Shown here: positions 4,062-63,279 of the stretch, piece by piece | How the letters are laid out: every line of letters begins with the position of its first letter | Position numbering within the stretch: the stretch's first letter is position 1 | DNA from: Candidatus Aegiribacteria sp. | GTDB lineage: Bacteria > Fermentibacterota > Fermentibacteria > Fermentibacterales > JCC-6 | Assembly (NCBI GenBank): GCA_021108005.1 | Contig: JAIORS010000191.1 | Coordinates: 6,345 to 70,344, forward strand | Direction of reading: 5' to 3' | Length of the DNA stretch: 64,000 nucleotides | The notes under the pieces: generated by a model | The model's database searches: none | What the model was told of the DNA's origin: nothing | The model's input: the letters and a program-made list of their open reading frames with translations, nothing else | Program-made: the position numbers and the translations under genes

Positions 4062-5981
4062 ATGGGAAAAATAATAGGAATAGACCTTGGAACCACGAAT
4101 TCATGCGTGGCCGTTATGGAGGGCGGTGAGCCTACCGTAATACCCAACGCTGAAGGCGCGAGAACTACACCTTCGGTAGTAGCCTTCAATGACAAGGGTG
4201 AGAGGCTTGTAGGTGTTGTAGCCTACAGGCAGGCAGTGGCGAATCCCGAGAATACGATATTCTCGATAAAGAGATTCATGGGATGCAAGTACAACGAGAT
4301 GAAAAGTGAAATTGAAAGGGTTCCCTACAAGGTTATTGAGGGGAAGAACGGCGATGCCTGGGTGGAAATCATGGGCAAGAAGTACTCACCCCCGGAAATA
4401 TCCGCGATGATACTTCAGAAAATGAGGCAGACAGCCGAGGATTACCTGGGAGAGAAAGTAGAGAAAGCGGTTGTGACCGTTCCCGCGTATTTCAACGACA
4501 GTCAGAGGCAGGCCACCAAGGATGCCGGGAAAATAGCCGGTCTTGAAGTGGAAAGAATTGTAAACGAACCCACAGCGGCAGCTCTTGCCTACGGACTTGA
4601 CAAGGAATCCTCAAACAGGACTATCGCCGTATACGACCTCGGTGGAGGAACCTTTGATATATCAATACTGGAAATTGGTGACGGGGTTTTTGAGGTTAAA
4701 TCAACCAATGGAGATACTCACCTGGGTGGGGACGATTTCGACCATGCCATCATTAACTGGATGGTTGCCGAATTCAAGAAGCAGCAGGGCATCGATCTGT
4801 CCAATGACAAAATGGCCATTCAGAGGCTCAAGGAAGCTGCTGAAACAGCCAAATGCGAGCTTTCAACAACACAGAGCACCAATATCAACCTTCCTTTCGT
4901 CACGGCGGATTCAGCCGGGGCGAAGCATCTCGACATGACACTTACAAGATCAAAACTCGAACAGCTGGTTGATGACCTTGTAGAAAGAACAGTGGCTCCC
5001 TGTAGAACGGCATTGAAGGATGCCGGTATCGAGGCGTCAGCTATAGACGATGTTCTTCTGGTCGGTGGACAGACCCGGATGCCGCTTGTTCAGAGGAAGG
5101 TTACCGAGATATTCGGCAAGGAACCTCACAAAGGAGTCAACCCGGATGAAGTGGTTGCCGTTGGAGCAGCCATCCAGGCAGGTGTACTCTCAGGTGATGT
5201 CAAAGATGTCCTTCTTCTGGATGTTACTCCGCTTACACTTGGTATCGAAACCCTCGGCGGAGTGGCGACACCCATTATAGACAAAAACACAACTATACCT
5301 ACAAAGAAAAGCCAGATATTCAGTACCGCAGCTGACAGCCAGCCCCAGGTGGAGATCATCGTGCTTCAGGGCGAAAGAAAAATGGCGGCAGACAACAGGA
5401 CTGTTGGAAGATTCGTTCTTGACGGTATTCCACCTGCCCCCAGGGGAATGCCTCAGATAGAAGTAACGTTCGATATCGATGCTAACGGAATTCTTCACGT
5501 TTCAGCAAAGGATAAGGCTACCGGGAAGGAACAGAAGATCAAGATAGAAGCCTCCAGCGGACTATCCAAAGATGAAATAGAAAGTATGATTCATGACGCT
5601 GAAGCTCATGCAGATGAGGATGCTAAAAAGAAGGATATAATAGAAAGGCGCAATCAGGCCGATGCCATGGTTTTCGAAATCGAGAAACAGATGAAGGAAT
5701 ACGGAGACAAAATATCTTCAGATGACAGATCCAGGCTTGATGCTGCAGTTTCGGAAATGAAGAAGGCACTTGAGGGGGAAGATGACGATCTGATAAAGCA
5801 GAAGTCAGAGAGTCTTCAGGAAACCTGGAAGCAGTTCGGGGAAGCCTTCTACAAGCAGCAGCAGGCTCAGGAGCAGGATGCGGGACCAGCCGGACAGGCC
5901 GGAGAAACAACCGGAACAGCTGATGCCGGTGGAGATGAAGACAACACTGTTGACGCTGATTACGAAGTTGTTGATGACTGA
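4062..5981 (+). CDS. dnaK: Chaperone DnaK (Hsp70)
   Basis: [13 protein letters not shown]...DLGGGTFD...[11 protein letters not shown], full-length with acidic C-terminal tail. Confidence 0.97.
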
Positions 5982-6643: not shown

Positions 6644-7651
6644 GTGAATAAAGACCTCTACTCCATCCTGGGGGCTGACGAGAAAGCATCGCAGGAAGAA
6701 CTGAAGAAGTCTTACCGCAAGCTGGCCAAGAAGTATCATCCCGATGCGAACCCTGGAGATAAGAAAGCGGAAGAACGTTTCAAGGAAATCTCCGAAGCGT
6801 ACGATATTCTCGGCAGCAAAGAAAAAAGAGAACAGTACGATCAGATGCGGAGGGGCGGCGGAGACTTTTCGTGGGGTGAAGCCGGCGGTCAGAGAGGAAA
6901 TCCCTTTGGCGACGGCGGTTTAGCTGACATCCTTCGTTCGATGTTCGGTGGCGGTGGAGGCGGCGGAGGCGGCGGTTTCGGACAGAGGAGAGCCTCAAGA
7001 CCTACCGTTGTTGTATCTGTCCCGTTTAAAACTGCTGCCCTGGGAGGAACTGTCAGGGCTAATATGGAAGTGCCCTCCACATGTCCTGTATGCATGGGAG
7101 CAGGAGGCTCGGGAGAAGAACGCTGCAGCCAGTGCGGTGGTTCAGGCAGAATACAGCAGGGCCAGATGGTAATGCCCTGTCCGGCCTGTGGAGGTTCAGG
7201 CAGGACTTTCAAAAATAAATGTTCGAAGTGTCATGGAACCGGCGAAGTCATGTCTTCAGAAGTTGTTGACCTGAACATTCCCGCAGGATCAGATGACGGA
7301 TCAGTGCTGCGTCTCGCAACACCCTCCAGGAAGACAGTGATGGTAAAACTGAGGGTTAAGCCGGACAGTTTTTTCAGGAGAGACGGCAGGAACATTCACT
7401 GTACAGTGAAGATAAATGTTCCCCAGGCAGTTCTGGGCACGAAACTGAAAATACGTACTCTCGACGGCAAAATAGTACTTAAGATTCATCCTGGAACCCA
7501 GCCTGAAACGGTTCTGAGAATTCCAGGAAAGGGTGTTCCCTACAGAGGTACAAAGGGAGACCAGCTGGTTCATGTGGAGGTTACAGTACCAGAATCCGTA
7601 ACGGAAGAGGAAAAGGTTCTCTGGGAGAAACTTTCAGGGAAAAAAGCTTGA
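6644..7651 (+). CDS. dnaJ: Chaperone DnaJ
   Basis: GTG start. J domain with KKYHPD, Gly/Phe-rich region, four CxxCxGxG zinc-finger repeats. Confidence 0.93.
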
Positions 7652-13897: not shown

Positions 13898-14014
13898 AAC
13901 TCAGTTGATATTGACTTAACCCGGATATTTTATATCATTGATATCTGTGGAATGATTTGGGGTATATTGCAACCACAATAAAAAAAGTGCTAAAAAGCCG
14001 ATAGCTCCCCTAAA

Positions 14015-23171: not shown

Positions 23172-23803
23172 TGGGTATAGAAACTCCATTCATCATTGTT
23201 CTTGTATTCTTCAGCGTTGTATGTCATGAAATTGCCCACGGGTACGTTGCCCTTAAGCTGGGCGATCCCACCGCCTACAGGGCTGGAAGGCTGACATTCA
23301 ACCCTGTTTCGCACATCGATCCGATAGGAACGATAATGCTTCCCGCCCTGTTTCTTATAACCAACAGTCCCATCATGCTGGCATGGGCCAAGCCCGTACC
23401 GGTTAATCCGGGCTTTTTCAGAAATCCAAAGACAGGCATGATGTGGGTCGCGATTGCGGGACCGGCGACTAATTTTGCTATTGCTCTTGTACTTACACTG
23501 CTTCTCCATCTTCTGGGAAGCGCCATGCCTGCTATACTTATGCACAGCCTGGCAATGGCCGCGCTTATGAATATTGTGTTGATGGTTTTCAACCTCCTGC
23601 CCATTCCTCCACTTGACGGCAGCAGGATAGTGGCGAGGTTTCTCAACGGGCAGGCTCTGTACAACTATAGAAAGCTAGAGAGATTTGGTCTTTTCATAGT
23701 GTTCGGGCTGTTATGGCTGGGTGTTATTTCGAGTATTCTTTATCCCGCTCTGAACTTCGCTGTCCGCCATCTTGATCTTTACCAGTACCTCCCCCGTTTC
23801 TAG
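23171..23803 (+). CDS. Site-2 protease family (M50) membrane metallopeptidase
   Basis: HEIAHGYVA motif in a TM helix, LPIPPLDGSRIV second motif. Confidence 0.8.
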   Translation: MGIETPFIIVLVFFSVVCHEIAHGYVALKLGDPTAYRAGRLTFNPVSHIDPIGTIMLPALFLITNSPIMLAWAKPVPVNPGFFRNPKTGMMWVAIAGPATNFAIALVLTLLLHLLGSAMPAILMHSLAMAALMNIVLMVFNLLPIPPLDGSRIVARFLNGQALYNYRKLERFGLFIVFGLLWLGVISSILYPALNFAVRHLDLYQYLPRF

Positions 23804-24758
23804 GGTCAGGTCTTGCATCCGGGCATTATTATCGTATAATATACATATGACTAGACAATTACGCATTAAAATCCCTGGCGGACTGTATCATATTTACTCC
23901 CGTGGTATAGATCGGAGTGATATCTTCAAAGATAATAACGACAGGGACAAATTTCTGGAGATACTGCAGAACAGCATCAGTAATTCAGGCTGGAGGTGTT
24001 ATGCCTACTGTCTCATGAACAACCATTACCATATCCTGATAGAATCAGCAGATGGAGATACTTCTCGCGGAATGCATCAATTGAACAGTGTCTACGCCCA
24101 GTATTTTAACTGGAAGCATGAACGCGTGGGGCCACTCTTCCAGGGCAGATTCAGATCTATATTGGTTGACAGGGAGAATTACTTTTTGGAATTATGTAGG
24201 TATATAGTACTTAACCCGGTAAGGGCAGGAGCGGCGAAATCCCCTGAAGAGTATTATTGGAGCAGTTACAGAGTTACATCAGGACTTGATAATCAGGAAA
24301 CCTGCATCGATAGAGAGTTTGTGCTTTCCCGATTTGCCGGAGATAACGATTCAGACGCATCTGCAAGGGCTGCATATTCACAGTTTGTTTACGAAGGTCT
24401 TGACAAGGATTTTTCTCCATTTGAAATAAAGGGTGATTTGATTCTGGGAGACAGAAAATTTGTAGAATCCCTGAAGGAAGAAATCGAGAAGGAAAAAGAC
24501 AATACTGATTTTCCTAAGTTTCAGAGAACAGCGCATCGCCCAGATCTTGTGGAACTACTTGATCCCCTGACTGTTTCTTTAAGAGAGACGCGCAATGCGG
24601 CTGTGGGAGAAGCGTACAGTATATTCGGTTATACACAGAAAGAAATTGCAGGATTACTAGGTATTAATGTTTCAACTGTATATCGAATTCTAAAGAGTAT
24701 ATGATTATTAATAGTTAAAATAAAATGATAATAATGCCCGGATGCAAGACCTGACCCC
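23803..24758. mobile_element. RAYT/IS200-like element: single transposase gene bounded by perfect 30-bp terminal inverted repeats
   Basis: GGGTCAGGTCTTGCATCCGGGCATTATTAT at 23804-23833 and its exact reverse complement at 24728-24757. Inserted between the M50 stop codon and the RBS of the next gene. Confidence 0.7.
23847..24704 (+). CDS. REP-associated tyrosine transposase-like protein (IS200-like HuH domain + C-terminal DnaA-type HTH)
   Basis: GGLYHIYSRG, NNHYHILIE (HuH motif), EEYYWSSY tyrosine region, C-terminal GYTQKEIAGLLGINVSTVYRILK HTH. ORF track starts at 23772, but the ATG at 23847 gives the conserved N-terminus. Confidence 0.8.
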   Translation: MTRQLRIKIPGGLYHIYSRGIDRSDIFKDNNDRDKFLEILQNSISNSGWRCYAYCLMNNHYHILIESADGDTSRGMHQLNSVYAQYFNWKHERVGPLFQGRFRSILVDRENYFLELCRYIVLNPVRAGAAKSPEEYYWSSYRVTSGLDNQETCIDREFVLSRFAGDNDSDASARAAYSQFVYEGLDKDFSPFEIKGDLILGDRKFVESLKEEIEKEKDNTDFPKFQRTAHRPDLVELLDPLTVSLRETRNAAVGEAYSIFGYTQKEIAGLLGINVSTVYRILKSI

Positions 24759-24769
24759 AGGAGGCTATT

Positions 24770-32585: not shown

Positions 32586-32772
32586 GGGGTCAAATCTTTA
32601 CTCTTGACATTATCTTTCTATGTGCCTAGTGAAAATGTATAGAACTTCACATTCAAACACTTTTTTACTTTTGTACAATTTGATGAATGGAAGTAATGTC
32701 AAGAGTAAAGATTTGACCCCTTTTCCTCAATGTGATGAATGGAAGTAATGTCAAGAGTAAAGATTCGACCCC
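32586..32772. repeat. MITE-like repeat cluster: 27-bp perfect terminal inverted repeats 81 bp apart, plus an extra direct copy of the right end
   Basis: GGGGTCAAATCTTTACTCTTGACATTA at 32586-32612; reverse complement at 32694-32720. A 45-nt direct repeat at 32681-32725 and 32733-32777 has one mismatch. Confidence 0.5.
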
Positions 32773-34817: not shown

Positions 34818-35660
34818 TCAGGTTTCTATAATCGGAGGGGCTGGAGGAAGAGAAGAGTCCGGACCAATAAATTCAGTATCCGAGATATCTTCATCTGGAG
34901 CTTTAGAAAGCATAATGTCCCTGTCTTTGAGTCCGACGAATTTGCCGAAAGCGGATTTTTCAAGCAGAAGAAGCTTAGCTGCTTTCTCTACAACCTCGAC
35001 TGCATCGCACGCGGAATCGATATCTTTTCCCAACCCCAGTATTCCATGCTTTCTCCAGATGACGCAGTCGCTCTCGCGGAATGCTTTTGCGGTTTCTTTT
35101 CCCAATATCCAGGTCCCAGGAGTCATGTAATCAAGAAAGCGGACTCCCCGGCTCATCAGAAGCGCGACCTCCGGATGGGATCTGTTCACAGCATCTTCGA
35201 GCATTTCGGCAGGCAGATCGCTGGAGGACAGCGCAAGCATGTGTGTTGAGTGCGTATGAACCAGAGAAGCGGTTTCCCATCCACGGTTGGTGGCTTCCGC
35301 CAGAACCAGAAGGTGTGAGCTGAACTCGGTTGTGGGTTCTTTATCTGACGCGAGCCTTATTACTTTCATTCCGTCTGCTGAAACTCTTACAGGGACGATT
35401 TCCGTGTCCAGCTCGTGCGGTAACTTTCTGAACCTGCTTCCAGCGCATGTAATAAGAAAAGTCCGACCCGCAAGTTCTGGTATAGGGAAAGGGAGGATGT
35501 CTGAAACGACATCCCCCTCCCATATTGAACTGTCGGACCCCTCCGGCAAAAGAACGGAGATGTTGCCTGCGTTGGCTTCGGCCCAGCCCGTTCTGGCAAG
35601 CTCAACAGCTATCCGGCCAATATCCTCCTTTGTTGCCCTGATAAGGTCCATGGCTGTCAC
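34818..35660 (-). CDS. Class II aldolase/adducin-family protein
   Basis: ANAGNISVLLP and HTHSTHMLAL metal-binding histidines. Longer (280 aa) than FucA/AraD. Confidence 0.65.
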   Translation of the reverse strand: MTAMDLIRATKEDIGRIAVELARTGWAEANAGNISVLLPEGSDSSIWEGDVVSDILPFPIPELAGRTFLITCAGSRFRKLPHELDTEIVPVRVSADGMKVIRLASDKEPTTEFSSHLLVLAEATNRGWETASLVHTHSTHMLALSSSDLPAEMLEDAVNRSHPEVALLMSRGVRFLDYMTPGTWILGKETAKAFRESDCVIWRKHGILGLGKDIDSACDAVEVVEKAAKLLLLEKSAFGKFVGLKDRDIMLSKAPDEDISDTEFIGPDSSLPPAPPIIET

Positions 35661-45007: not shown

Positions 45008-45718
45008 ATGCTCATTAGAATCATTTCCGATATTCACAGTAATTACCAGGCTCTCGAAGCGGTTCTGAACGACCCGACCGGGAAAGATGCGGAAAAGACT
45101 TTATGCCTTGGCGATATCGTGGGTTACGGAGCCGATCCCTCCAGATGCATTGAGAGGGTACGGCAGGAATGCGACATCGTAGTTTCTGGTAACCATGACG
45201 CTGGAGCGGCAGGGCGGGTATCTCTCGACAGGTACAACTGGGAGGGAGCTACGGCTTTAAGATGGACAAGATCAATTCTTTCTCAGGATGAAAAGGACTG
45301 GCTGTCACTTATTCCGTACTTCGCTGAGTACGAGAATTTCTTTCTCTGTCACAGTTACCCGGCCGATCCTGAAAACTGGACGTACGTTCTCCGGCGGAAT
45401 CAAGCCCTTGAATCCATAAACGCGAGGCAGGGGTATATATCGCTTATAGGACATACACACCTTCCCGGCTGCTGGATGGAAGATGGCAACTACACCGATG
45501 CTTCGAAGGGAGATTTTTCGAAGGTCAGGCTTGTTAACGCTGGCAGTGTTGGACAGCCAAGGGACAGAGATCCAAGGGCGGCTTACCTTCTCATTGATAC
45601 CGAAGCTGGAACGTGGGAACACCGCAGGGTGAAGTACAGCATCGATGACGCCGCCGCCAGAATAAAGGAAGTTGCGCTGCCCCCCATTCTATGGGAGAGA
45701 CTTTACCGAGGACACTGA
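45008..45718 (+). CDS. Calcineurin-like metallophosphoesterase (YfcE/MJ0936-like)
   Basis: ISDIHSN, GDIVGYGADP, GNHD, GHTH motifs. Confidence 0.8.
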   Translation: MLIRIISDIHSNYQALEAVLNDPTGKDAEKTLCLGDIVGYGADPSRCIERVRQECDIVVSGNHDAGAAGRVSLDRYNWEGATALRWTRSILSQDEKDWLSLIPYFAEYENFFLCHSYPADPENWTYVLRRNQALESINARQGYISLIGHTHLPGCWMEDGNYTDASKGDFSKVRLVNAGSVGQPRDRDPRAAYLLIDTEAGTWEHRRVKYSIDDAAARIKEVALPPILWERLYRGH

Positions 45719-45719
45719 T

Positions 45720-45751
45720 GGGGTCGGACTTCACTTGCGGCACTTACGCAG
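45720..45751. repeat. GGGTC-headed intergenic repeat, copy A
   Basis: GGGGTCGGACTTCACTTGCGGCACTTACGCAG immediately after the phosphoesterase stop. Related copies at 46453, 51943 and 55283. Confidence 0.5.
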
Positions 45752-45877
45752 TTTAAGCACAGTTTATTAGACAACAGTTATTCAATACATGCACGTGGAT
45801 TCTGAAATTGACCAGGCTGAAATCCGGCAGTATCATTATTCTGGATGTAGAAAACGATATGAAGAAACAGAAGTCGT

Positions 45878-46429
45878 ATGTCGGGAGCAGGAATGAATAT
45901 TAGAAGCGCATTGTTGTCTATAGCAGTTGCTCTTTTTTCTACGAGTTTTGTTTCAGCCGATCCGGTACCGATACCTCCGGCTGAAAACAGATTCAGTATC
46001 ATGCAAACATTGGAAATGACATTTCACATGGAGAGCCCTCTTGATCAGCATTCCATGAATACCTGGATCATCTATGGAGGTCCTTCCCTGGTCTATATCT
46101 GGATCCCGGATGAAATAGTGGGTTCTGGTATCGGTTTGGAGTTAGGAGGGGAACTTCGGAAATATTTCATTGAACCTTATTCTGGTATTTTTTTTGGTGC
46201 GTATATGGGTGCCGGTATTTTATTCAGGACAGGTGAGGAACACATAGAGGCTATTTCTTCAGGTCTCAAGCTTGGATGGCGTATCCCCCTGATAAGAGCA
46301 GCGCTTCCTCTGGACCTTGAACCGTACATTGGTGTTGGTATTAAGCTGCTCAGTAACGAAAATGATGTGTGGGGCGAAAATTACTCCCATGTTACTTTAT
46401 ATCTTGGAACCAAGGTTGAACTGTACTGA
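45878..46429 (+). CDS. Small outer-membrane beta-barrel-like protein (OmpW/OmpX-like size)
   Basis: Signal peptide, alternating amphipathic beta-strand pattern, C-terminal aromatic (…GTKVELY). Confidence 0.45.
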   Translation: MSGAGMNIRSALLSIAVALFSTSFVSADPVPIPPAENRFSIMQTLEMTFHMESPLDQHSMNTWIIYGGPSLVYIWIPDEIVGSGIGLELGGELRKYFIEPYSGIFFGAYMGAGILFRTGEEHIEAISSGLKLGWRIPLIRAALPLDLEPYIGVGIKLLSNENDVWGENYSHVTLYLGTKVELY

Positions 46430-46452
46430 TCGATCAGAAGTACAGAGTCAAG

Positions 46453-46482
46453 GGGTCGGACTTCACTTGCGGCACTTGCAGA
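46453..46482. repeat. GGGTC-headed intergenic repeat, copy B
   Basis: GGGGTCGGACTTCACTTGCGGCACTTGCAG. First 26 nt identical to copy A. Contains the tandem 7-mer CACTTGC ×2. Confidence 0.5.
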
Positions 46483-46489
46483 AATAGAA

Positions 46490-47656
46490 TCAGATCTCCG
46501 TTTCGTCAGTTTTCTCAGGAAGCTTCAGTTCCGTGGAGAACCTCGCGAGCAGTTCCATTTCCGTTTTACCTTTCGCAGCGCTGGCTGAGAGCCTCGCTAT
46601 ATCCGAAAAGATATTTAGTCTTATCTCAATGGGAAGGCAAGAAGCGCTGTATATGGATTTTCGCAGTCTCGTTTCAAGATCAAGTGAATTGGAATTTCTT
46701 GCGAATTCGATTGCTTCGCTTGCCACATTGTCACCAAAAGTTTTCTGGAGTAGCACCTGCTCCTGTTGATTGAGCATGCCATCCGCCAGGAAGAGCGCGA
46801 GTGTTCCCCATAGAACAGCTTCAAATGCTGCGGCTTCGTTTATCTTTACCAGGTGAAACCCGCCGACAGCGGCAAGTTCTTTCTGGATCTTTTTTTCGAG
46901 CTTCTCCCATTCCAGGGGGGCTTTCCCCTTTTTCCCGGTAAATTTGTAGTACCGGTCACTCATCTCGAACCACAGGAGGGCTCTGACCCTTGAGGTGATT
47001 AAAGGATGCGTGGACAGAAGCTGAAACTTGGATCCTCCCATATCCAGCAATTCCCTTGCCTGGTCAAGGTAGGTGGTAAGGTCGAATCTTATATATTTGT
47101 CGCTCAATCCTGATGCCAGTTTGAGCATTCCCCTGAACGAGGATTCTGTTGATCCGCAGGATATAAAGCCTATCCTGTCCGCGCTTATTTCCCTTGCCCT
47201 TGAAAGAGCGAGCAGGTTGAAATTCTCCAACGGCGAACCGTCAGGATTCGGTGGTGGATACCGCAGGTGGCCGAAGAGGGTGTGAGATATTTCATGACCG
47301 ACGATGAATTTTATCTCGCTGGCGCTGAATCTCTCTATCAGGCCTGAGCTGAGCGCAAGGGTTACAGATCCGCCCTTGCCCTCACCGAAACTGTACGCCT
47401 GGCCCTCGCCGGAGTTAAAAACGTAACCCTCAACGGTTCTGTCGGGAATGAGTTTCTTTCTTACATCTTCGATTAATTCAGCGATCTCGGGAAAGAGCTC
47501 TGGTGCGATGAGAACAGAATGTGATAGATTCCGGCTCCTTACTTCGATCTGTTTCTCTTCTATGCCATCCTCGACTGAGCTGAAGCCATACTCATCGAGG
47601 GAATCATTTTCGAACCTGAAATCCTCGATCTGAAATGGCAGCTTAGCTTTTTTCAT
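46490..47656 (-). CDS. Soluble M48/HtpX-like HExxH metallopeptidase fused to a C-terminal TerB-like domain
   Basis: FIVGHEISHTLFGH zinc motif with no TM helices. C-terminal helical domain with TerB-like LALFLADGMLNQQEQ and ARLSASAAKG...ELLARF halves. ATG at 47656 (MKKAKLPF) chosen; it overlaps the upstream gene by 14 nt. Confidence 0.55.
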   Translation of the reverse strand: MKKAKLPFQIEDFRFENDSLDEYGFSSVEDGIEEKQIEVRSRNLSHSVLIAPELFPEIAELIEDVRKKLIPDRTVEGYVFNSGEGQAYSFGEGKGGSVTLALSSGLIERFSASEIKFIVGHEISHTLFGHLRYPPPNPDGSPLENFNLLALSRAREISADRIGFISCGSTESSFRGMLKLASGLSDKYIRFDLTTYLDQARELLDMGGSKFQLLSTHPLITSRVRALLWFEMSDRYYKFTGKKGKAPLEWEKLEKKIQKELAAVGGFHLVKINEAAAFEAVLWGTLALFLADGMLNQQEQVLLQKTFGDNVASEAIEFARNSNSLDLETRLRKSIYSASCLPIEIRLNIFSDIARLSASAAKGKTEMELLARFSTELKLPEKTDETEI

Positions 47657-48902
47657 CACTGCCTTCGAGGAGAGCCATTTCTTTGGAAATAAGTTCCTGC
47701 ATCTGCCGTGCCTGCGCCTGTTTCTCAGGGTTGGAATGTGTGGCCAGGGCGCGCCACTTCCTGTTCTCTTTTCTGAGATGCTTTCTTTTCTGTTCGACTG
47801 TCCAGGAGGGGTCAATGCCCAGTTTTGTGTTGATATTATCGGTTTCAAATATATCTATCGGAAGTATCTTCTCTATCATGGTTCTGAAGCGTTCGTGATC
47901 AACGCCCAGATTTTCGGCGAGAGAGTTAACCAGTTCAAGTTCAGTGTCCACGGCTTTTCCATCTGCGCTGGCCACCTTCAGGCAGAGTTCGAGTATGTCG
48001 TACTTGTCTCCCATGGATGAGGCCGGAATGGGATTCATCTCGATGAGGTCACTGCAGAGAGGGATGATGTCTTCGGGAACTGAGCTAGCGGAGGCCATCA
48101 TCGCCGATTCCACGGCGCTGTTAAGCTTCTGCTTAACCTCCTGCTTCTGTGATTCCACACTGCTTTCGATTCGCTTTTGTATCCATTCCTTGACAACACG
48201 GCCCTCGGTTCCCGAGAAATTCCCGTCAGCGGCGCTTACCGAGACCGCGAGCTTAACTGCCAGTTCCGCTGCTCTTAGCCTCGACTTCATATTGTCCATG
48301 TAACCAGACTGAGTATTCACAAAATATATTTCTGATTTTGACTTTACCAGTACCGTTTTATCGGGAGCAATAATTGTTACTTCGAAAAGAAGCAGTCTCT
48401 TTCCCCTTGCGGGGAAGGTCAGGGTTTCAATTGGTATGGATAACATCGGTTGCCAGACGGAGAGAAGAGACTTCATGAATGGAAGTATATCCATGGTCGA
48501 AGAGAAAAAGGCGGTAGTATCCTGGTACTGGAGGTTGTCCAGAGAACAGAGAACCGGTTTCTGATCATCCTTCCCATTGGTGATATCAAAGAGGGTTATT
48601 GTTTTCAATACCGGGCAGTTGTTCATTGGCGCGTTTATCGGTCCCTGCATCTCGATAGTGAAAACTTCCATCGTGATCTCTCCGAAATCCTTCATCTCGG
48701 TGGAGACATATGTCTGGAAAAGGAAGTTTGTCGTTGTAGGTCTTGGCCCGTTCTTAGCTTCTTTTCTCGTTTTCGTGCCCGATGATTTCTTCTCATCTTC
48801 AGAACCTGCTACCCCTGCAACTATTCCAATAACTACAATAAGCAGAACTATGCCGCAGCAGATTGGAGGTGCCAGGGAACTAAGGACAATTGTCGCTATC
48901 AA
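47643..48902 (-). CDS. DjlA-like membrane co-chaperone candidate: N-terminal TM anchor, TerB-like domain, C-terminal J-like domain with non-canonical HPD (HSNPE)
   Basis: TM helix at aa 1-32. TerB-like halves (AVSVSAADGNFSGTEGRVVKEWI and LKVASADGKAVDTELELVNSLAENLGV). C-terminal tail KRKHLRKENRKWRALATHSNPEKQAQARQMQELISKEMALL resembles the DjlA J-domain (AYRKLMSEHHPDK...KQKAQEIQQAYELI). Confidence 0.5.
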   Translation of the reverse strand: MIATIVLSSLAPPICCGIVLLIVVIGIVAGVAGSEDEKKSSGTKTRKEAKNGPRPTTTNFLFQTYVSTEMKDFGEITMEVFTIEMQGPINAPMNNCPVLKTITLFDITNGKDDQKPVLCSLDNLQYQDTTAFFSSTMDILPFMKSLLSVWQPMLSIPIETLTFPARGKRLLLFEVTIIAPDKTVLVKSKSEIYFVNTQSGYMDNMKSRLRAAELAVKLAVSVSAADGNFSGTEGRVVKEWIQKRIESSVESQKQEVKQKLNSAVESAMMASASSVPEDIIPLCSDLIEMNPIPASSMGDKYDILELCLKVASADGKAVDTELELVNSLAENLGVDHERFRTMIEKILPIDIFETDNINTKLGIDPSWTVEQKRKHLRKENRKWRALATHSNPEKQAQARQMQELISKEMALLEGSDEKS

Positions 48903-48911
48903 AACCGTCTC

Positions 48912-50474
48912 CTATTCAACCTGGAAAACCCGAAGGCTGGACCTTCTTCGTTCCACCTCGGACTGGGACATCTGTCCCGCCTGGGTATCTATGTCCATCT
49001 CCAGTTTTCTGCCCGACTCCTCGTCCTTGAATACGCAGTGCATTCTCTGGTTTGTATCGTAGCTGTATTGAACCTTGACAGGCTTGTTGGCCTCCCGGTT
49101 GGGTGGAAGATCCAGGTGACCGATGGACACGATATTCACAATATCCGGATCGGTACTTTCAATGACGTGCTGAGTAACTTTAGCTTCTATCTCTACCTGG
49201 CCCTTTGCGGCGGTGTAATAGGTTCTCTCAACCTGACATGGCAGGGTCGTATTCTTCGGAATGAGAACATCATTTATCAGGATTTTTCTCCCGGTTTCCT
49301 GATCAATGGTTGCGATTATAGTTCCATAGCAGTGTCCGCAGACTTCCTTCAGCTTGATATCCCCGAGCCCAGCGGCTACTCCGCTGGGAACTTTGGATGC
49401 GTCCTGTTCCATCAGCTTCAACCCTGCATGGAGAGCGGCTCCAAGGGCAACGCACTCGTCCGCGTTCACCGCAACCGTAGGAGGTTTGCCGAACATCTTC
49501 TCGAGTCTCTTCTGGATCACAGGTATACGGGTGCTTCCTCCCACAAGCAGCACTCTGTCAATCTGATTCGGTTCGAGTTCGGCTTCGTCGAGCACATCCT
49601 CCACAAGCATGTCTATCCTTGCAGTCAGGGGTGAGATAAGTTCCTCGAACTTCTGCCTGCTCAACTCGTGCTTAAAACTACCCTCGTTTCCAACCAGAAG
49701 TGTTTTAACAGATGGACGTTTTGAAAGTGATTTTTTTGCGTCTTCAGCCTCTATCTCGTACCTTGCCCGGTCTTCCGGAGTTGGAAACAGATCTCCATTC
49801 TTCTCACTGCTGTAAACATCTTTGAAGTTCTCGACCAGTTTCTGGTCGAACTCGTACCCACCCAGCTGATGGTCACCGGTGGAACAGACGATATCGATCT
49901 TCTTTCCCTGAACGTTCATAACTGTAACATCGAAAGTGCCACCGCCCAGATCGAACACCAGTATCTTTCCCGATACGTCCTGCTCAGACGCGTAGAATAA
50001 AGCTGCAGCCGTCGGCTCATTAACTATTCCTATTACGTTAAGACCGGCCATCTTGCCAGCGTCCATTGTGGCCTTCCGTCGAACTTCGTCGAAGTAGGCC
50101 GGAACGGTAACGACAACATCGGAGATTTCGCCCACCTGCTTCGAACATTCCTCTTTCAACTTTCGAAGGATAAGCGAAGAGAGTTCAGCGGGAGTCCACT
50201 GTTTTCCCATGACTTCCTGGGGATAGAAAGGATCCCCCATGTAACGTTTCACCCATCGGGCTGACCTTGTGACATCATCGGCCCTGGCATTAATGGCTTC
50301 ACGACCCACGAGCACGGTTTCCTGGCTGTCATCGGGAAAATAGATCGCTGAGGGTGTAATTCGCTCACCATCGGAATTGGGAACCGTCTCGGGTTTCCCT
50401 ATACTGTTAAGAATAGCCAAACCAGAAAAGGTCGTTCCCAGATCTATGCCTGCAATGTTACTCAATGTCATCAC
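48912..50474 (-). CDS. Hsp70-family ATPase paralog (520 aa), lidless substrate-binding domain
   Basis: [36 protein letters not shown] actin-like ATPase motifs, followed by a beta-sandwich SBD without the helical lid or EEVD tail. Distinct from the canonical dnaK at 4062. Confidence 0.85.
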   Translation of the reverse strand: MMTLSNIAGIDLGTTFSGLAILNSIGKPETVPNSDGERITPSAIYFPDDSQETVLVGREAINARADDVTRSARWVKRYMGDPFYPQEVMGKQWTPAELSSLILRKLKEECSKQVGEISDVVVTVPAYFDEVRRKATMDAGKMAGLNVIGIVNEPTAAALFYASEQDVSGKILVFDLGGGTFDVTVMNVQGKKIDIVCSTGDHQLGGYEFDQKLVENFKDVYSSEKNGDLFPTPEDRARYEIEAEDAKKSLSKRPSVKTLLVGNEGSFKHELSRQKFEELISPLTARIDMLVEDVLDEAELEPNQIDRVLLVGGSTRIPVIQKRLEKMFGKPPTVAVNADECVALGAALHAGLKLMEQDASKVPSGVAAGLGDIKLKEVCGHCYGTIIATIDQETGRKILINDVLIPKNTTLPCQVERTYYTAAKGQVEIEAKVTQHVIESTDPDIVNIVSIGHLDLPPNREANKPVKVQYSYDTNQRMHCVFKDEESGRKLEMDIDTQAGQMSQSEVERRRSSLRVFQVE

Positions 50475-51186
50475 TTCCTTCTGTTTGTTTCATATAGAGC
50501 CTTACTTTAGCAGGTCGAATAAGCTTCCGATGTTCGTCATCGATGTAAAAAATGTAGCCCGGGTTCACTACCTTCGATATGTGTCCGGGTTCCCCCTTTT
50601 CAGAGGGGTCTTTGCCCACTACTTCCGCTATTTTTTCCTGGCCTGAGTAAGGAGTATCGATTTCGGGTTTAAACTGTTCTATTCCGCTTCCATCAAGAGC
50701 GAATACGAGCTGGTCGTAAATCATATCGAGATCCTGACGGTGATTATCAGTTACTTCATCGGTGCTGTTCATACGTTTTTCAACATCATCGATGCATCTT
50801 ATTATTCGATGACAAAAATTCTTCAACACTGTCCAGTCGTATCCGTCCTGAAACCTCTTGACCATGCTTTGTTGTTTTGCGAAATAATCCCTCAGGCTCG
50901 ATACCTGTGAGAGCATATCCATTGCGGAGTTGTCAGACCGCTTCGCGAAATCTCCCGCCGATCTGAGGGCTGTAAGTATATCGAGATTCTGTTTCTCGAG
51001 TTCTGTCTGCAGCAGCCCGCTTACGTCAGATATCTGATCTTTCATTTCGTTAAGATGATTGCGCAGATCTTTTGAATTCTTCTTGAACATGGTTTTAAGA
51101 CTTTTTGAAAGCTCCCTGAATTGTTTTCCGGAAAGAGCAGCCTCTGCTTTCCCGGATATTTCAGCCTTCTCCGCTTTACTGGCCAT
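50458..51186 (-). CDS. GrpE-like nucleotide exchange factor paralog
   Basis: N-terminal coiled coil. C-terminal motifs align with the window's own GrpE: GIEQFKPEIDTPYSGQEKIAEV (cf. GLSELDIKKGDPFDPNIQEAMIAE) and PGYIFYIDDEHRKLIRPAKVRLY (cf. KGYRLGEDLLRPARVKVGK). Overlaps the Hsp70 paralog by 17 nt. Confidence 0.5.
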   Translation of the reverse strand: MASKAEKAEISGKAEAALSGKQFRELSKSLKTMFKKNSKDLRNHLNEMKDQISDVSGLLQTELEKQNLDILTALRSAGDFAKRSDNSAMDMLSQVSSLRDYFAKQQSMVKRFQDGYDWTVLKNFCHRIIRCIDDVEKRMNSTDEVTDNHRQDLDMIYDQLVFALDGSGIEQFKPEIDTPYSGQEKIAEVVGKDPSEKGEPGHISKVVNPGYIFYIDDEHRKLIRPAKVRLYMKQTEGSDDIE

Positions 51187-51468
51187 TTACAATCCTCCAT
51201 TGTTACCGATGAAAGTGAATCCGGAATCTGTACTATTCAATTAGAACCGGAACTGTAGAGTTATCGAGAACTATCTTCTTCTGAACCCTTACCCATCCGG
51301 TTAATACAATCAATTCAAGGTCGCATCAGGCGAATACTGATTAGTTTTATTGAAGGATGATATTCAATGGTATCAAGTTCTGTCAATTCCTGAAAATCGT
51401 AAATCGTATTTCAGTTCATTCACTTCTATCAAATATGGTAGATGAATCACTGAAAACATTTAGACCCT

Positions 51469-51954
51469 TCAGGATATGGTGTATCTTCCGCGCAGCATAT
51501 CGATTGACTTGCAGAGAAGAAGGCTCAGGCCCGTTCCCCACATGAACCCGGTTGCCGTCAGAAGAGAGCGAGAAGTATCAATCACTCCCGTGAATTCCAG
51601 TACCCACTGTAAGCCCATAATGAATGTAACGAACAGGGAAACCAGGAGAACGGTTTTCCATTTCAGTCTTTTCCGAAATAGCGGGAAGAACACAGCACAA
51701 CCGAGAACAATTGAAAAGTATATTCCGTTGCACCTCACGCATACTGCGGCAGGTCGTCCGAATATCACAGGGCATCGATCCGGTATGCCATGACACAGTA
51801 ATTTGTATGCAGATCGTATGAAACGTGCGGTTCCATCGTGAGAAAAATGCTCCAGGATTGGAGGCAGCAGACCAAGCAGCCAGATTACCAGGAAACTCAG
51901 AGCTATACATAAAGCCCATACGGGGTAACGGTTGTTTCTCGGACCGGACGTCAC
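51469..51954 (-). CDS. DUF2085-like membrane protein
   Basis: LCHGIPDRCPVIFGRPAAVCVRCNGIYFS between TM helices. Confidence 0.55.
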   Translation of the reverse strand: MTSGPRNNRYPVWALCIALSFLVIWLLGLLPPILEHFSHDGTARFIRSAYKLLCHGIPDRCPVIFGRPAAVCVRCNGIYFSIVLGCAVFFPLFRKRLKWKTVLLVSLFVTFIMGLQWVLEFTGVIDTSRSLLTATGFMWGTGLSLLLCKSIDMLRGRYTIS

Positions 51955-53054
51955 TTGCGCAGAGTGTCTTTCATTATTTCTATCATACTGTTCGCGGTAT
52001 CATCCCAGTTGAAACCGGTAGCCCATTCCATGCCGCTTTTTCCGAGTGTGTCCCTTTGAACCGGATCGTTTGCAAGCCTGTCCATTTCAGCCGCAAGACT
52101 ATCCACACTGCCATGGGGAACAAGAATGCCGGTAATGCCGTCCTTCACCGAATCCCGAAGACCATCGCTGTCGCTGGCGATAACGGGGGTTCCGCAGGCG
52201 TTTGCTTCGATTACCGTCAGTCCCCATCCCTCTTTCTCAGATGCGAATACGGCCGCCCAGGCCTTCCGCAGCCAGTGGAGCTTTCGCTCCTGGGAAACGA
52301 ATCCCTCAAAGGTAACACTCCGGTCAAGGCCAAGGCGTGAGGCGGTTTTTTTCAGCTCCGCTTCGTAATCGCCGGATCCAAGCACTACAAGCCTGTAATT
52401 CTTACCCGCGTCCCGCAGTACAGCCAGCGCCGCAAGGATCAGTTGGACACCCTTGTACTTTTTCAACCTTCCGACGTACAGGAATGTCCCCTGTTCCGGA
52501 TCGGGTTTTCCCGGCCTGTAGAATCCGGTGTCTATCCCGCAGGGAATAACGGAAATATTTTCCGCGGATATTCCCCTTTTTACGAGATCCTTCTTTGTAG
52601 ATTCGGAAATAGCCACGAAAGAGCATTCTCCATAAACCCTAGGTATGAAAGATTCCATGAAATTCACATAGAGCGCAAGAGGCAGCGCGACTTCCCTGTA
52701 AGCCGTTGTGCCGAAGAGGTGGGGCACAATGGTAAGAACAGGAACCGGAGACCATCGGGGGCTGTAGAAGGGTATCTTGCAGAGGTCTTCAATGACAAGG
52801 TCGAAGTTGGATGATATGTCGAGGGAGAGGGCAAATTTTTTCAGTGTAAAATTGAAAGTGTTCCGCTTTCCATTACGGAGGATACGTATACCGTCTATTG
52901 TTTCTTCAGAGGGGAGACCGGCCACCGCCTGAGAGATCTGTGTAACCTCATGGCCGGCAATGACTGTCCTTCTGAGGATTTCATGAAGGTGAATCTCTGC
53001 CCCCCCCGTTTCAGGATTCTTCGGATCCCTCCAGTTAAGGGCCAGAATACGCAT
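51951..53054 (-). CDS. Glycosyltransferase family 4
   Basis: EGWGLTVIEANACGTPVIASDSDGLRDSV. Confidence 0.8.
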   Translation of the reverse strand: MRILALNWRDPKNPETGGAEIHLHEILRRTVIAGHEVTQISQAVAGLPSEETIDGIRILRNGKRNTFNFTLKKFALSLDISSNFDLVIEDLCKIPFYSPRWSPVPVLTIVPHLFGTTAYREVALPLALYVNFMESFIPRVYGECSFVAISESTKKDLVKRGISAENISVIPCGIDTGFYRPGKPDPEQGTFLYVGRLKKYKGVQLILAALAVLRDAGKNYRLVVLGSGDYEAELKKTASRLGLDRSVTFEGFVSQERKLHWLRKAWAAVFASEKEGWGLTVIEANACGTPVIASDSDGLRDSVKDGITGILVPHGSVDSLAAEMDRLANDPVQRDTLGKSGMEWATGFNWDDTANSMIEIMKDTLRK

Positions 53055-55230: not shown

Positions 55231-55326
55231 CCTCCCGTGTTGTTTTCACTGCTGTTACAAGGACAGGTTGCTGATTATTCCATCTCCCAGGTCGGACTTA
55301 CTTATCTTACTTATTCTGTCCATTTT

Positions 55327-57839: not shown

Positions 57840-58368
57840 AACAATAGGAAAGTGGATTTTTCGTAATACCATTACCTGCTCCCAAAGCAGTAAATATTTC
57901 CCAATAAACCTCCGATGTCCTGCCTGATTAGGTAAATGTGTTTAATTATGGGTCTTTCCTGCTAATGCGGTAGATATCCAGATACCGCAATTGCCGTGCG
58001 TAGATCGGGCAAGTTCGTTATTCCAACGCCATTGACGGCTCTAATATAACTAAATAGATTTGTGATATAACCAAATGTATATGTTATATAACTGAAATAT
58101 TTAGTTCATACAGGAGAAATACCGATATGGAAACATACGATTTTAGTTTTATCTACGCTCTTCTGGGAGAGACTGTGTCCAGAACTCTTTTCTACATTGC
58201 AAGGTTCGGTGATTCCTATCCTACGGAGATAGCGAATAACTTCTTAATGAACCAGCAAAGGGTTCAGTATCGGATGGAAAAGCTCGAGGATGCCGGGATA
58301 CTAAAGAGCAAACTCGTCGGCAGGACAAGGCTGTACAGGATTAATCCCCGGTACGTTTTGAAGAATGA
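57840..58368. repeat. 529-bp direct repeat, copy 1 (identical to 62005..62533)
   Basis: Identical by eye along its length: AT-rich upstream region with palindromes plus the first 242 nt of the wHTH gene. Confidence 0.85.
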
Positions 58369-60876: not shown

Positions 60877-62006
60877 ATGAACGCGAAAAAACCACTCTCT
60901 GAAACCCATCCGGAAGTAGCTGCACAGTGGCACCCATCAAAAAATGGAAATCTCAAACCTGATGATGTTACTTATGGTATGCGTAAGAATGTCTGGTGGA
61001 TTTGTGATAATGGACACGAATGGTGTGATACTATTGGACATAGATCTCGCGGAAGAGGTTGACCATTTTGTTCTGGAAGACGTCCAAGTGCTGAATACAA
61101 TCTAGCATCAATCAATCCAGAAATAGCCAGTGAATGGCATCCAGAGAAAAATGGTTCTGAAAAGCCTGAACACTTCACCCCTGGTAGCAGTAAAAAAGCA
61201 TGGTGGATTTGTGACAAAGGTCATGAATGGAAAGCTAATATTAGCAGTCGAAATAGGGGAGCAGGCTGTCCATATTGTAGTGGTAATAAGCTCGCATATG
61301 AGAATAGTCTTGAAGTTAAATATCCAGATTTATCAAAGCAATGGAATATAGAAAGAAATGGATTACTGAAACCTTCAGAGGTAAGTCCTGGATCTCAGAG
61401 AAAAGTATGGTGGATATGCGAGAATGGGCATGAATGGGATGCGTATATCGCTAATAGGGTTAGAGGTGGAGGTTGTCCATTCTGTAATACTCAGTCATCT
61501 AAGCTTGAAATACGGGTCTATTGCGAGTTGAAAGCAAGTACTATGGAGAAAAGTACAATGGTTACGAGCTTGATGTATTCCTTGTTAAAGAGAAGATTGG
61601 TATCGAAATCGATGGAGGATATTGGCATAAAGACAAAGTATGCCAGGACAGGAAGAAGAATGAAACTCTCAAGACTCAAGGCATAACCGTTGTCAGGCTT
61701 AGAGGTGAAGGTTTGAGCAAGCTATCACCATTCGATTCATGTTACAAAAAGAATGAGCGTCACAAAGTAATCATTAATAGGTTATTAGAGGGTATGTTAG
61801 AGAACTCTTTACTCAATAAGAATGCAGTTCGAATCATGCAAGAGTACATTACTGAGAATAAGTACAGATCGCTGTCCGAGTATAGACGTATACTGGAATA
61901 TTTACCTGGACCAATGCCCGAGAAATCCTTGCAATCACAAAGGCCCGATATTGCCTCAGAATGGCATCCAACAAAAAATGAACCCCTTACACCTACTATG
62001 TTCTAA
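60877..62006 (+). pseudogene. Zinc-ribbon-repeat / DUF559 (Vsr-like endonuclease fold) gene, disrupted
   Basis: Repeats of WHPxKNG...P....GS.KKVWWICxxGHEW....RxRGxGCPxC. In-frame TGA at 61060 where the repeat consensus needs Cys. Frame switches between the last Zn ribbon (frame 1) and the YELDVFLVKEKIGIEIDGGYWH endonuclease-like domain (frame 3). The 3' end is cut by repeat copy 2. Confidence 0.55.
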
Positions 62007-62533
62007 CAATAGGAAAGTGGATTTTTCGTAATACCATTACCTGCTCCCAAAGCAGTAAATATTTCCCAATAAACCTCCGATGTCCTGCCTGATTAGGTAA
62101 ATGTGTTTAATTATGGGTCTTTCCTGCTAATGCGGTAGATATCCAGATACCGCAATTGCCGTGCGTAGATCGGGCAAGTTCGTTATTCCAACGCCATTGA
62201 CGGCTCTAATATAACTAAATAGATTTGTGATATAACCAAATGTATATGTTATATAACTGAAATATTTAGTTCATACAGGAGAAATACCGATATGGAAACA
62301 TACGATTTTAGTTTTATCTACGCTCTTCTGGGAGAGACTGTGTCCAGAACTCTTTTCTACATTGCAAGGTTCGGTGATTCCTATCCTACGGAGATAGCGA
62401 ATAACTTCTTAATGAACCAGCAAAGGGTTCAGTATCGGATGGAAAAGCTCGAGGATGCCGGGATACTAAAGAGCAAACTCGTCGGCAGGACAAGGCTGTA
62501 CAGGATTAATCCCCGGTACGTTTTGAAGAATGA
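62005..62533. repeat. 529-bp direct repeat, copy 2
   Basis: Identical to 57840..58368. Confidence 0.85.
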
Positions 62534-62663: not shown

Positions 62664-63169
62664 CTGATCTTGCTGCAATAATATGCCAGCATCTTGCGAA
62701 TAGAGAAATCCACGCTGTCCTCACGGGTGGTGCTGTAGTATCGATTTACTCGGATGACCGCTATCTTACTGCTGATCTTGATTTCATTACCCTCAGTAGC
62801 ATGAAACGAGTAAAGGTAGCTCTTGAAGAGCTTGGATTCCATAAAGAGATGGGACGCTATTTCTCACATCCTGATACAGAACTCCTGATAGAATTTCCGC
62901 CCGGTCCGCTATCTATCGGTTATTCCCCTGTTTCCAGTACACACAAAATAACAATCGGGAATTCCACACTCAACCTTCTCACACCAACCCAGTGCGTCAT
63001 GGACAGGCTGGCAGCCTTCTACCACTGGGATGATATACAGTCTCTGGCACAGGCTATACTCGTTGCTACACTTCATGATGTGGACATGGAATACATTGCT
63101 GAGTGGTCCATCATAGAAGGAAAAAGTGAACTGTTCAACCACTTCAGAGATAAATTGAATAAACAATAG
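62564..63169 (+). CDS. Nucleotidyltransferase-fold protein (minimal NTase, GG...D.D motif), translation start unresolved
   Basis: Open frame from 62564. REIHAVLTGGAVVSIYSDDRYLTADLDFI is the NTase hG[GS]-x9-13-DhD core. No ATG/GTG/TTG occurs upstream of this motif; the first ATG (62801) lies after it. The frame overlaps the 3' end of the wHTH ORF in the -1 frame. Confidence 0.4.
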   Translation: MSSRGRNRIILYEEEKATDKGKDTEKISRECGIADLAAIICQHLANREIHAVLTGGAVVSIYSDDRYLTADLDFITLSSMKRVKVALEELGFHKEMGRYFSHPDTELLIEFPPGPLSIGYSPVSSTHKITIGNSTLNLLTPTQCVMDRLAAFYHWDDIQSLAQAILVATLHDVDMEYIAEWSIIEGKSELFNHFRDKLNKQ

Positions 63170-63279
63170 GAAAGTGGAATTTTCGTAATCCCATTGATAT
63201 CTTCGATCAAAAAGTATGCGGACCAATACGGCAGAAAACGCCCCTTGCAAAATAGTGAACATTTGTTTACATATATGCC

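Follow-up and report, generated by a model that had tools for sequence, protein, structure and literature searches.

A low-copy, GGGGTC-headed intergenic repeat of Candidatus Aegiribacteria and its probable relationship to the terminal inverted repeats of TIRYT transposases

The window analysed here, by which we mean the whole stretch of 64,000 nucleotides of Candidatus Aegiribacteria DNA, contains a 26/26 direct repeat of the sequence GGGGTCGGACTTCACTTGCGGCACTT. Exactly two copies are present, both on the + strand. Copy A starts 1 nt past the stop (45718) of a Metallophos phosphoesterase gene (45008-45718), and copy B is found between two gene ends, with the stop of the 45878-46429 gene 22 nt to its left and that of a convergent gene for an M48 peptidase 12 nt to its right. 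An earlier note on this DNA had reported the repeat and had placed its copies 3' of the phosphoesterase stop and of the OMP-like gene, and the measured positions bear out both statements; only its coordinate for the second copy (46453) is one nucleotide off, the true start being 46452. Both copies are found unchanged in two Logan contigs from the same organism. No third match with three or fewer mismatches occurs within the 64-kb window, and 100 shuffles gave 0 matches. The features of this part of the window are as follows:

45720 to 45745, + strand: copy A of the 26-mer, with a subfamily I tail (...CACTT-ACGCAG); nhmmer envelope 45718-45751; its orthologue is found in the related locus L030
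45748 to 51945, no strand assigned: lineage-specific block of 6,198 bp, absent at the phosphoesterase-GT4 junction of the related loci L030 and L031
45878 to 46429, + strand: gene for a small secreted all-beta ("OMP-like") protein of 183 amino acids, with a signal helix and eight predicted strands
46452 to 46477, + strand: copy B of the 26-mer, with a subfamily II tail (...CACTT-GCAGAAATAGAATC) like that of L013 copy a; envelope 46450-46483; located between the convergent OMP-like and M48 genes

The 183 amino acid protein matched no Pfam or NCBIfam family and only 12 homologues were found. Its AlphaFold model has a pLDDT of 77, and a Foldseek search with this protein returned weak matches only (E≥0.04), almost all of them to membrane beta-barrels or beta-sheet pore-forming proteins. 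Judged from the predicted model, an OMP-like identity is plausible.

Relatives of the 26-mer were sought by scanning genome, metagenome and viral collections with exact core sequences (an 18-mer, a 20-mer and a 17-mer, respectively). Most matches were chance occurrences in high-GC coding DNA, with genuine copies in three low-GC sequences, L003, L008 (an Aegiribacteria MAG) and L013. Among GTDB species genomes, only two related ones contained the exact 18-mer, once each, and the 20-mer metagenome scan gave only one related contig. Non-orthologous copies of the family number one in L003, two in L008 and two in L013, and the orthologous copy is that of L030; besides this orthologue, no further copies were found in ~170 kb of other Aegiribacteria loci. 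A profile search (nhmmer) added only one diverged copy, at L008 3459. The copies of the family all fall outside genes, mostly where two convergent genes end: the L003 copy, for example, is found 6 nt past the stop of a peptidase gene and faces a convergent gene. In L013 the two copies have a 60-nt spacing and lie just past a tRNA gene. A tRNA fragment or att site was considered as an identity for the repeat and rejected (the window has no tRNA gene and the L013 copies do not overlap theirs), as was a CRISPR-like array in L013, where a 60-nt period is seen with no third unit and the 3' ends of the two copies differ. A perfect 10-bp hairpin (GGGTCAGGTT-TT-AACCTGACCC) is also present in L003 at 7411-7441, over the last codons of the peptidase gene and 9 nt before the 26-mer copy, and it carries a GGGTCAGG head as well.

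Alignment of eight copies reveals a left boundary that is sharp at GGGG and 26 nearly invariant bases, in which spaced (G/C)ACTT direct repeats can be read. The 3' tails fall into two subfamilies, the first (...CACTT-AC(G/A)-A-rich) comprising A, L030, L003, L013b and L008 and the second (...CACTT-GCAGA..AATAGA.TC) comprising B and L013a. The conserved 26 nt form the terminal part of a short, low-copy, non-palindromic intergenic repeat with a unit of about 30-50 nt and two tail subfamilies, confined to the Aegiribacteria lineage.

Two diverged relatives that the earlier note had listed, at 51943 and 55283, do not belong to this family. The first (51942-51959, + strand) matches at 15/18 positions with an nhmmer E-value of 0.34 and, rather than lying between convergent gene ends as had been stated, covers both the GT4 stop and the called start of the DUF2085 gene, these two genes being on the minus strand. 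It was rejected as a copy because part of it falls on the stop and last codons of GT4 and because its orthologous sequence is not a repeat: CACTTGCGCAG within it represents the final GT4 codons (LRK*), relatives encode the GT4 C-terminus with other codons, and the 3' 14 nt of the site correspond by orthology to GGGCGTTATTTACG, an L030 sequence that is no copy of the repeat. The second (55283-55297, + strand) shares no more than the 10-mer GGTCGGACTT (nhmmer E=8), and the conserved upstream region in which it lies reads AGGTCCAGCTT in the orthologous L031. The 11-mer GGGTCGGACTT, found at 35469 on the minus strand inside a 280 amino acid ORF, was treated as a chance match (E=2.3). The window also holds a separate 300-nt direct repeat of 100% identity (57840-58139 and 62005-62304, copies 4,165 nt apart), with a third, partial copy of 35 nt at 63161-63195; between the two full copies lie genes with 207-nt-period 'EWHP..KN' repeats.

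Comparison with the orthologous loci L030 (89% nucleotide identity) and L031 (79%) shows that in both of these the phosphoesterase gene is directly followed by convergent GT4 and methyltransferase genes. The 6.2-kb block of the window, containing the OMP-like gene, copy B and the M48, TerB, HSP70, GrpE and DUF2085 genes, stands in place of 35 bp of L030. Most of the block is made up of an M48 peptidase-TerB-HSP70-like-GrpE-like operon together with the DUF2085 gene (46490-51954). L030 keeps a copy of the repeat at the copy A position (GGGGCCGG..., 25/26), while L031 has no copy at the same junction. Since L030 retains copy A and is without the block, copy A is ancestral to the insertion. The earlier note had described the OMP-like gene as cassette-like, bracketed as it is by two copies, but what L030 and L031 lack is the 6.2-kb block and not the 732-bp unit, copy A is older than the block and the tails of A and B differ; thus the 732-bp repeat-gene-repeat is not an insertion unit. 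The block has an ordinary GC content with no compositional anomaly and its six proteins gave no PADLOC matches, on which grounds a defence island was rejected.

A second instance of bracketing is found in L008, where direct copies at 3459-3491 and 5838-5863 lie on both sides of a gene for a 757 amino acid protein that combines an LVIVD-like repeat region with a C-terminal T9SS tail, an arrangement that mirrors that of the OMP-like gene; it is the diverged copy found by the profile search that supplies one side of this pair. With two exported-protein genes each lying between direct copies, the 6.2-kb block that is inserted, by comparison with L030 and L031, just to the right of copy A, and a tandem pair of copies past the tRNA gene in L013, the 26-mer might be regarded as an att-like recombination site, beside which genes or blocks would be inserted as cassettes with direct copies left on both sides. 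We consider this distinctly unlikely. The empty sites lack the block and not the unit between the copies, the right end of the block is without a genuine copy of the 26-mer, the genes of the block include no recombinase or integrase and its composition is unexceptional. Moreover, the tails of A and B belong to different subfamilies and neither copy has the form of the reciprocal hybrid that a single crossover would leave.

The earlier note had gone on to interpret the copies as a REP-like family. In the strict sense this cannot be upheld, two of its four listed copies being spurious and the hairpin, the GTAG/CGTC tag and the high copy number all being absent. When both copies were folded on both strands, as the note had proposed, z ranged from -0.3 to +0.8 relative to shuffles, so that a conserved hairpin, for which folding would have to be better than that of shuffled sequence, is not seen; the best stem has 4 bp including one G-U pair. 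The lack of a common hairpin was among the outcomes that the note itself had named as refuting its reading. Neither the GTAG nor the CGTC end tag, as these are defined for REPs (PMC3733652), is present in the 26-mer, the head of which is GGGGTC. REPs are also recognised by over-representation, by identity to the sequence flanking a transposase gene and by inverted doublets. The abundance of the 26-mer (two copies in 64 kb and few matches in related genomes) is far below that of REP families across the window, the collection scans and the ~170 kb of related loci; the flanks of the transposase gene in the window read GGGTCAGGTCTTGCATCCGGGCATT, with the head alone in common; and all copies are single or direct, an inverted pair never being found in the genome and metagenome collection scans. 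The absence of a hairpin and the low copy number therefore indicate that the 26-mer is not a REP.

No terminator-like or consistent promoter-like pattern overlaps either copy, there being no GC-rich hairpin with a T tract, and the 26-mer has no Rfam match. The only Rfam match in the window is to the SAM-II (long-loop) riboswitch at 13941-14003 (+ strand; 46.3 bits, gathering score 44), which by synteny with L017 lies just upstream of the S-adenosylmethionine synthetase gene. These results bear on the idea that the 26-mer has nothing to do with transposases and is a cis-element of the host, for instance a protein-binding site or a 3'-end/termination element at convergent gene ends, kept by selection and resembling transposase repeats in its head by chance. 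Several observations are of the kind that such an element would produce: the 26 nt are nearly invariant among non-orthologous copies of different genomes, copy A is kept at 25/26 in a genome of 89% identity where the adjoining spacer has been replaced, copy number is low, the (G/C)ACTT direct repeats are spaced within the sequence, and there is a strong bias to gene 3' ends, often beside an A-rich or T-rich tract and in one L008 copy adjoining a terminator hairpin. However, 25/26 barely exceeds the 89% background, the copy is missing from the same junction in L031, the orientation of the copies with respect to neighbouring genes is inconsistent, and most copies lie at places with no promoter to regulate. 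A cis-element also lacks a hairpin, terminator signature or Rfam match to speak for it, and would leave the sharp GGGG boundary and the similarity to terminal inverted repeats unexplained. On balance we regard it as unlikely.

The transposase gene and a related non-coding element lie elsewhere in the window:

23800 to 23840, + strand: left terminal inverted repeat (TIR) of a TIRtron, containing AGGGTCAGGTCTTGCATCCGGGCATTATTATC
23847 to 24704, + strand: gene for a TIRYT-type Y1 (HUH) transposase of 285 amino acids with a C-terminal HTH_23 domain, located after a peptidase M50 gene
24720 to 24760, - strand: right terminal inverted repeat of the TIRtron; its minus-strand read begins GGGGTCAGGTCTTGCATCC and fits GGGGWSAS
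32586 to 32772, no strand assigned: MITE/REPIN-like hairpin element with three 27-nt GGGGTC(A/G)AATCTTTACTCTTGACATTA arms, at 32586-32612 (+), 32694-32720 (-) and 32746-32772 (-)

TIRYT genes are RAYT-like genes flanked by long TIRs, many of which share the motif GGGGWSAS, and some of these TIRs form moderately abundant families found as singletons, dimers and groups (Di Nocera et al. 2013, PMC3733652). TIRYTs have been equated with TnpA_REP subclass 2.1, which comprises long proteins with HTH_23, HTH_28 or DnaA-C tails (Quentin et al. 2018, PMC6006769). The "RAYT" of the window is of this published TIRYT/TIRtron type. The encoded protein is 100% identical to an NCBI entry from Candidatus Aegiribacteria sp.; in domain searches it matches Y1_Tnp (E=1e-10) and has HTH_23 at residues 245-283, and its translation shows an HYH motif and the YIVLNPV tyrosine; against the NCBI RAYT equivalog model REP_Tyr_transpos it scores 76 bits, the cutoff being 80. 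The gene is flanked by inverted arms of 41 nt that are 90% complementary, and the right arm (GGGGTCAG) is an exact fit to GGGG[AT][CG]A[CG], the left arm reading AGGGTCAG.

We fetched nine homologue loci from Aegiribacteria and Fermentibacteria, with protein identities from 92% to 48%. In all nine the gene has inverted repeats headed GGG(G)TC-N4-CTTG, with three types of TIR body (AGGT..., AAAC... and GTAT...). Among window 23800-24760 and the loci L017, L019, L020, L022 and L024-L029, the central tetranucleotide varies (CCGG, TTGA, TCAA, TTAA, TTCA, TTTA), with the head and CTTG fixed. Five related genomes have the gene at the same place, after peptidase M50 (protein identity 49-92%), and this shared position indicates vertical inheritance of the transposase gene. 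In other genomes a second, paralogous TIRYT type (GGGGTCGTATCTTG...) is found near a hydrogenase operon, and at L029 1380-1415 the inverted-repeat head is locally duplicated upstream of the transposase gene (GTCTTTGGGGTCGTCTTTGGGGTCGTATCTTG).

The element at 32586 folds as a long hairpin (z=-8.5) and forms an inverted doublet, its third arm having been made by a 52-nt tandem duplication. It lies directly 3' of a gene for an aminoacyl-tRNA synthetase of the tRNA-synt_2 family; L027 and L028 lack it at this junction, their convergent genes being only about 20 nt apart. The head of its arms (GGGGTCAA) fits GGGGWSAS at 7/8 positions. On a position matrix built from the pooled TIRs over the 22 nt after GGGTC, the arms score 13.7-16.5 bits (p<1e-4), and on this sequence comparison the element is clearly TIR-derived; TIR-derived, non-autonomous elements therefore exist in this genome.

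How does the 26-mer relate to these repeats? That the GGGTC head is common to the inverted repeats of the transposase gene, the 32586 element and the 26-mer, as the earlier note had observed, is confirmed by comparing all three, and of the REP-like family with a conserved head that it proposed the head survives, shared as GGGGTC or GGGTC by all loci fetched, and the REP nature, for want of a hairpin and of copy number, does not. The 26-mer head (GGGGTCGG) fits GGGGWSAS at 7/8. Past the head, the resemblance to TIRs is strong for the 32586 arms and weak for the 26-mer, where it needs a 1-nt gap: on the TIR matrix the 26-mer scores 1.4-3.1 bits with a one-base gap (p about 0.005), which, given ~70 other GGGTC sites in the window, could be chance. 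A closer match is seen to the GGGGTCGTATCTTGAATTTTGGCA type of TIR, which flanks the paralogous TIRYT in L024, L026 and L029; here 17/24 positions agree with one gap, a figure equalled by only two unrelated positions in ~128,000. No TIRYT gene flanked by the exact 26-mer was found among the fetched loci. The presence of the head at every homologue locus and its equality to the published TIR motif make a link between the 26-mer and this transposase class plausible, and since the 17/24 match is so rarely equalled and the conserved block begins exactly at the head, the 26-mer is probably related to the TIRs of TIRYTs.

The ends of another type of transposon could also begin in this way. Tn3-family elements have 38-bp ends that start with GGGG and finish with TAAG, and copy A reads GGGG...TTTAAG over exactly 38 nt. 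That the copies are solo terminal repeats of a Tn3-family or similar element is very improbable, though: TAAG is found at positions 35-38 in copy A and in no other copy, paired copies are all direct, and no inverted pair and no associated DDE transposase came to light in the genome, metagenome and viral collection scans. With TAAG not conserved among the copies, a 38-bp Tn3-type end was rejected.

Returning to the TIRYT connection, we put at about an even chance the reading that the copies are solo TIR-type units of the GGGGWSAS class, deposited in trans by a TIRYT-type enzyme. The 26-mer would then belong to the GGGGWSAS-headed TIR class that flanks TIRYT genes (TnpA_REP subclass 2.1, with a C-terminal HTH). 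We infer that such an enzyme would act in trans on single-stranded DNA, that the GGGGTC head may serve as its recognition or cleavage end, and that solo units would come to sit in harmless gaps at gene 3' ends. The earlier note had suggested mobilisation by the enzyme encoded at 23847, but the resident transposase's own repeats differ from the 26-mer in body and this enzyme is, as far as sequence can tell, probably not the cognate one. It is a paralogous TIRYT of other Aegiribacteria genomes (GGGGTCGTATCTT type) that has the nearest TIR type. Against spread by a TIRYT we count the copy number, which is very low for a transposase-spread family, and the head fit of only 7/8.

Going a step further, the solo GGGGTC-headed units might act as joints: neighbouring genes would be captured and relocated there, either by a TIRYT-type HUH enzyme or by recombination of one unit with another. 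Behind this lie the two exported-protein genes bracketed by direct copies and the 6.2-kb block exactly beside copy A. Were it true, Aegiribacteria would have a small "cassette" system for exported or surface proteins; we think it very improbable.

Among known systems, the TIRtron/TIRYT system offers the closest points of comparison. The gene at 23847 encodes a homologue of Y1 HUH transposases with an HTH at the C-terminus; it lies between long terminal inverted repeats rather than REP hairpins, has a TIR head that fits GGGGWSAS, and is present once, at a syntenic place, having been inherited vertically. Related TIR-like sequences occur dispersed in modest numbers, some as singletons and some as hairpin dimers. 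The differences are that the host (Aegiribacteria/Fermentibacterota) lies outside the published examples consulted, which come mainly from other phyla, that the 26-mer singletons mismatch the resident TIR body and are nearest to the TIR of the paralogous TIRYT, that they fit the motif at only 7/8, and that the link to any TIRYT is a statistical one. With the REP/REPIN-RAYT system (Nunvar 2010; Bertels and Rainey 2011, PMC3116915; PMC5581495) the locus shares short intergenic repeats near gene 3' ends, a domesticated tyrosine transposase, present in single copy and with the repeat type inverted on either side of it, and a hairpin doublet of the 32586 type as presumed mobile unit. The 26-mer differs from REPs in having no palindrome, GTAG tag or inverted doublets, in its far fewer copies and in not being identical to the sequence flanking the transposase gene. 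Flanking-16-mer counts are low for RAYT groups other than 2 and 3 (Bertels 2017, PMC5581495), and the abundance of the 26-mer is closer to these low counts. Finally, the 32586 element resembles MITEs in being short and non-coding, with conserved ends, an intergenic location and a presence that varies among related genomes, whereas the 26-mer copies are single, unpaired ends; no target-site duplication was identified for them.

The 26-mer family thus consists of ordinary repeats of an already known kind and opens no new question. What the locus adds is a clade in which a TIRYT gene is syntenic across genomes whose proteins range from 92% down to 49% identity. The inverted repeats of this clade hold the GGGGTC head while the body drifts, and solo units occur as well as a hairpin derivative. 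Together, the TIRs, the hairpin derivative and the solo units form a compact set on which to test what portion of the repeat is read by the enzyme.
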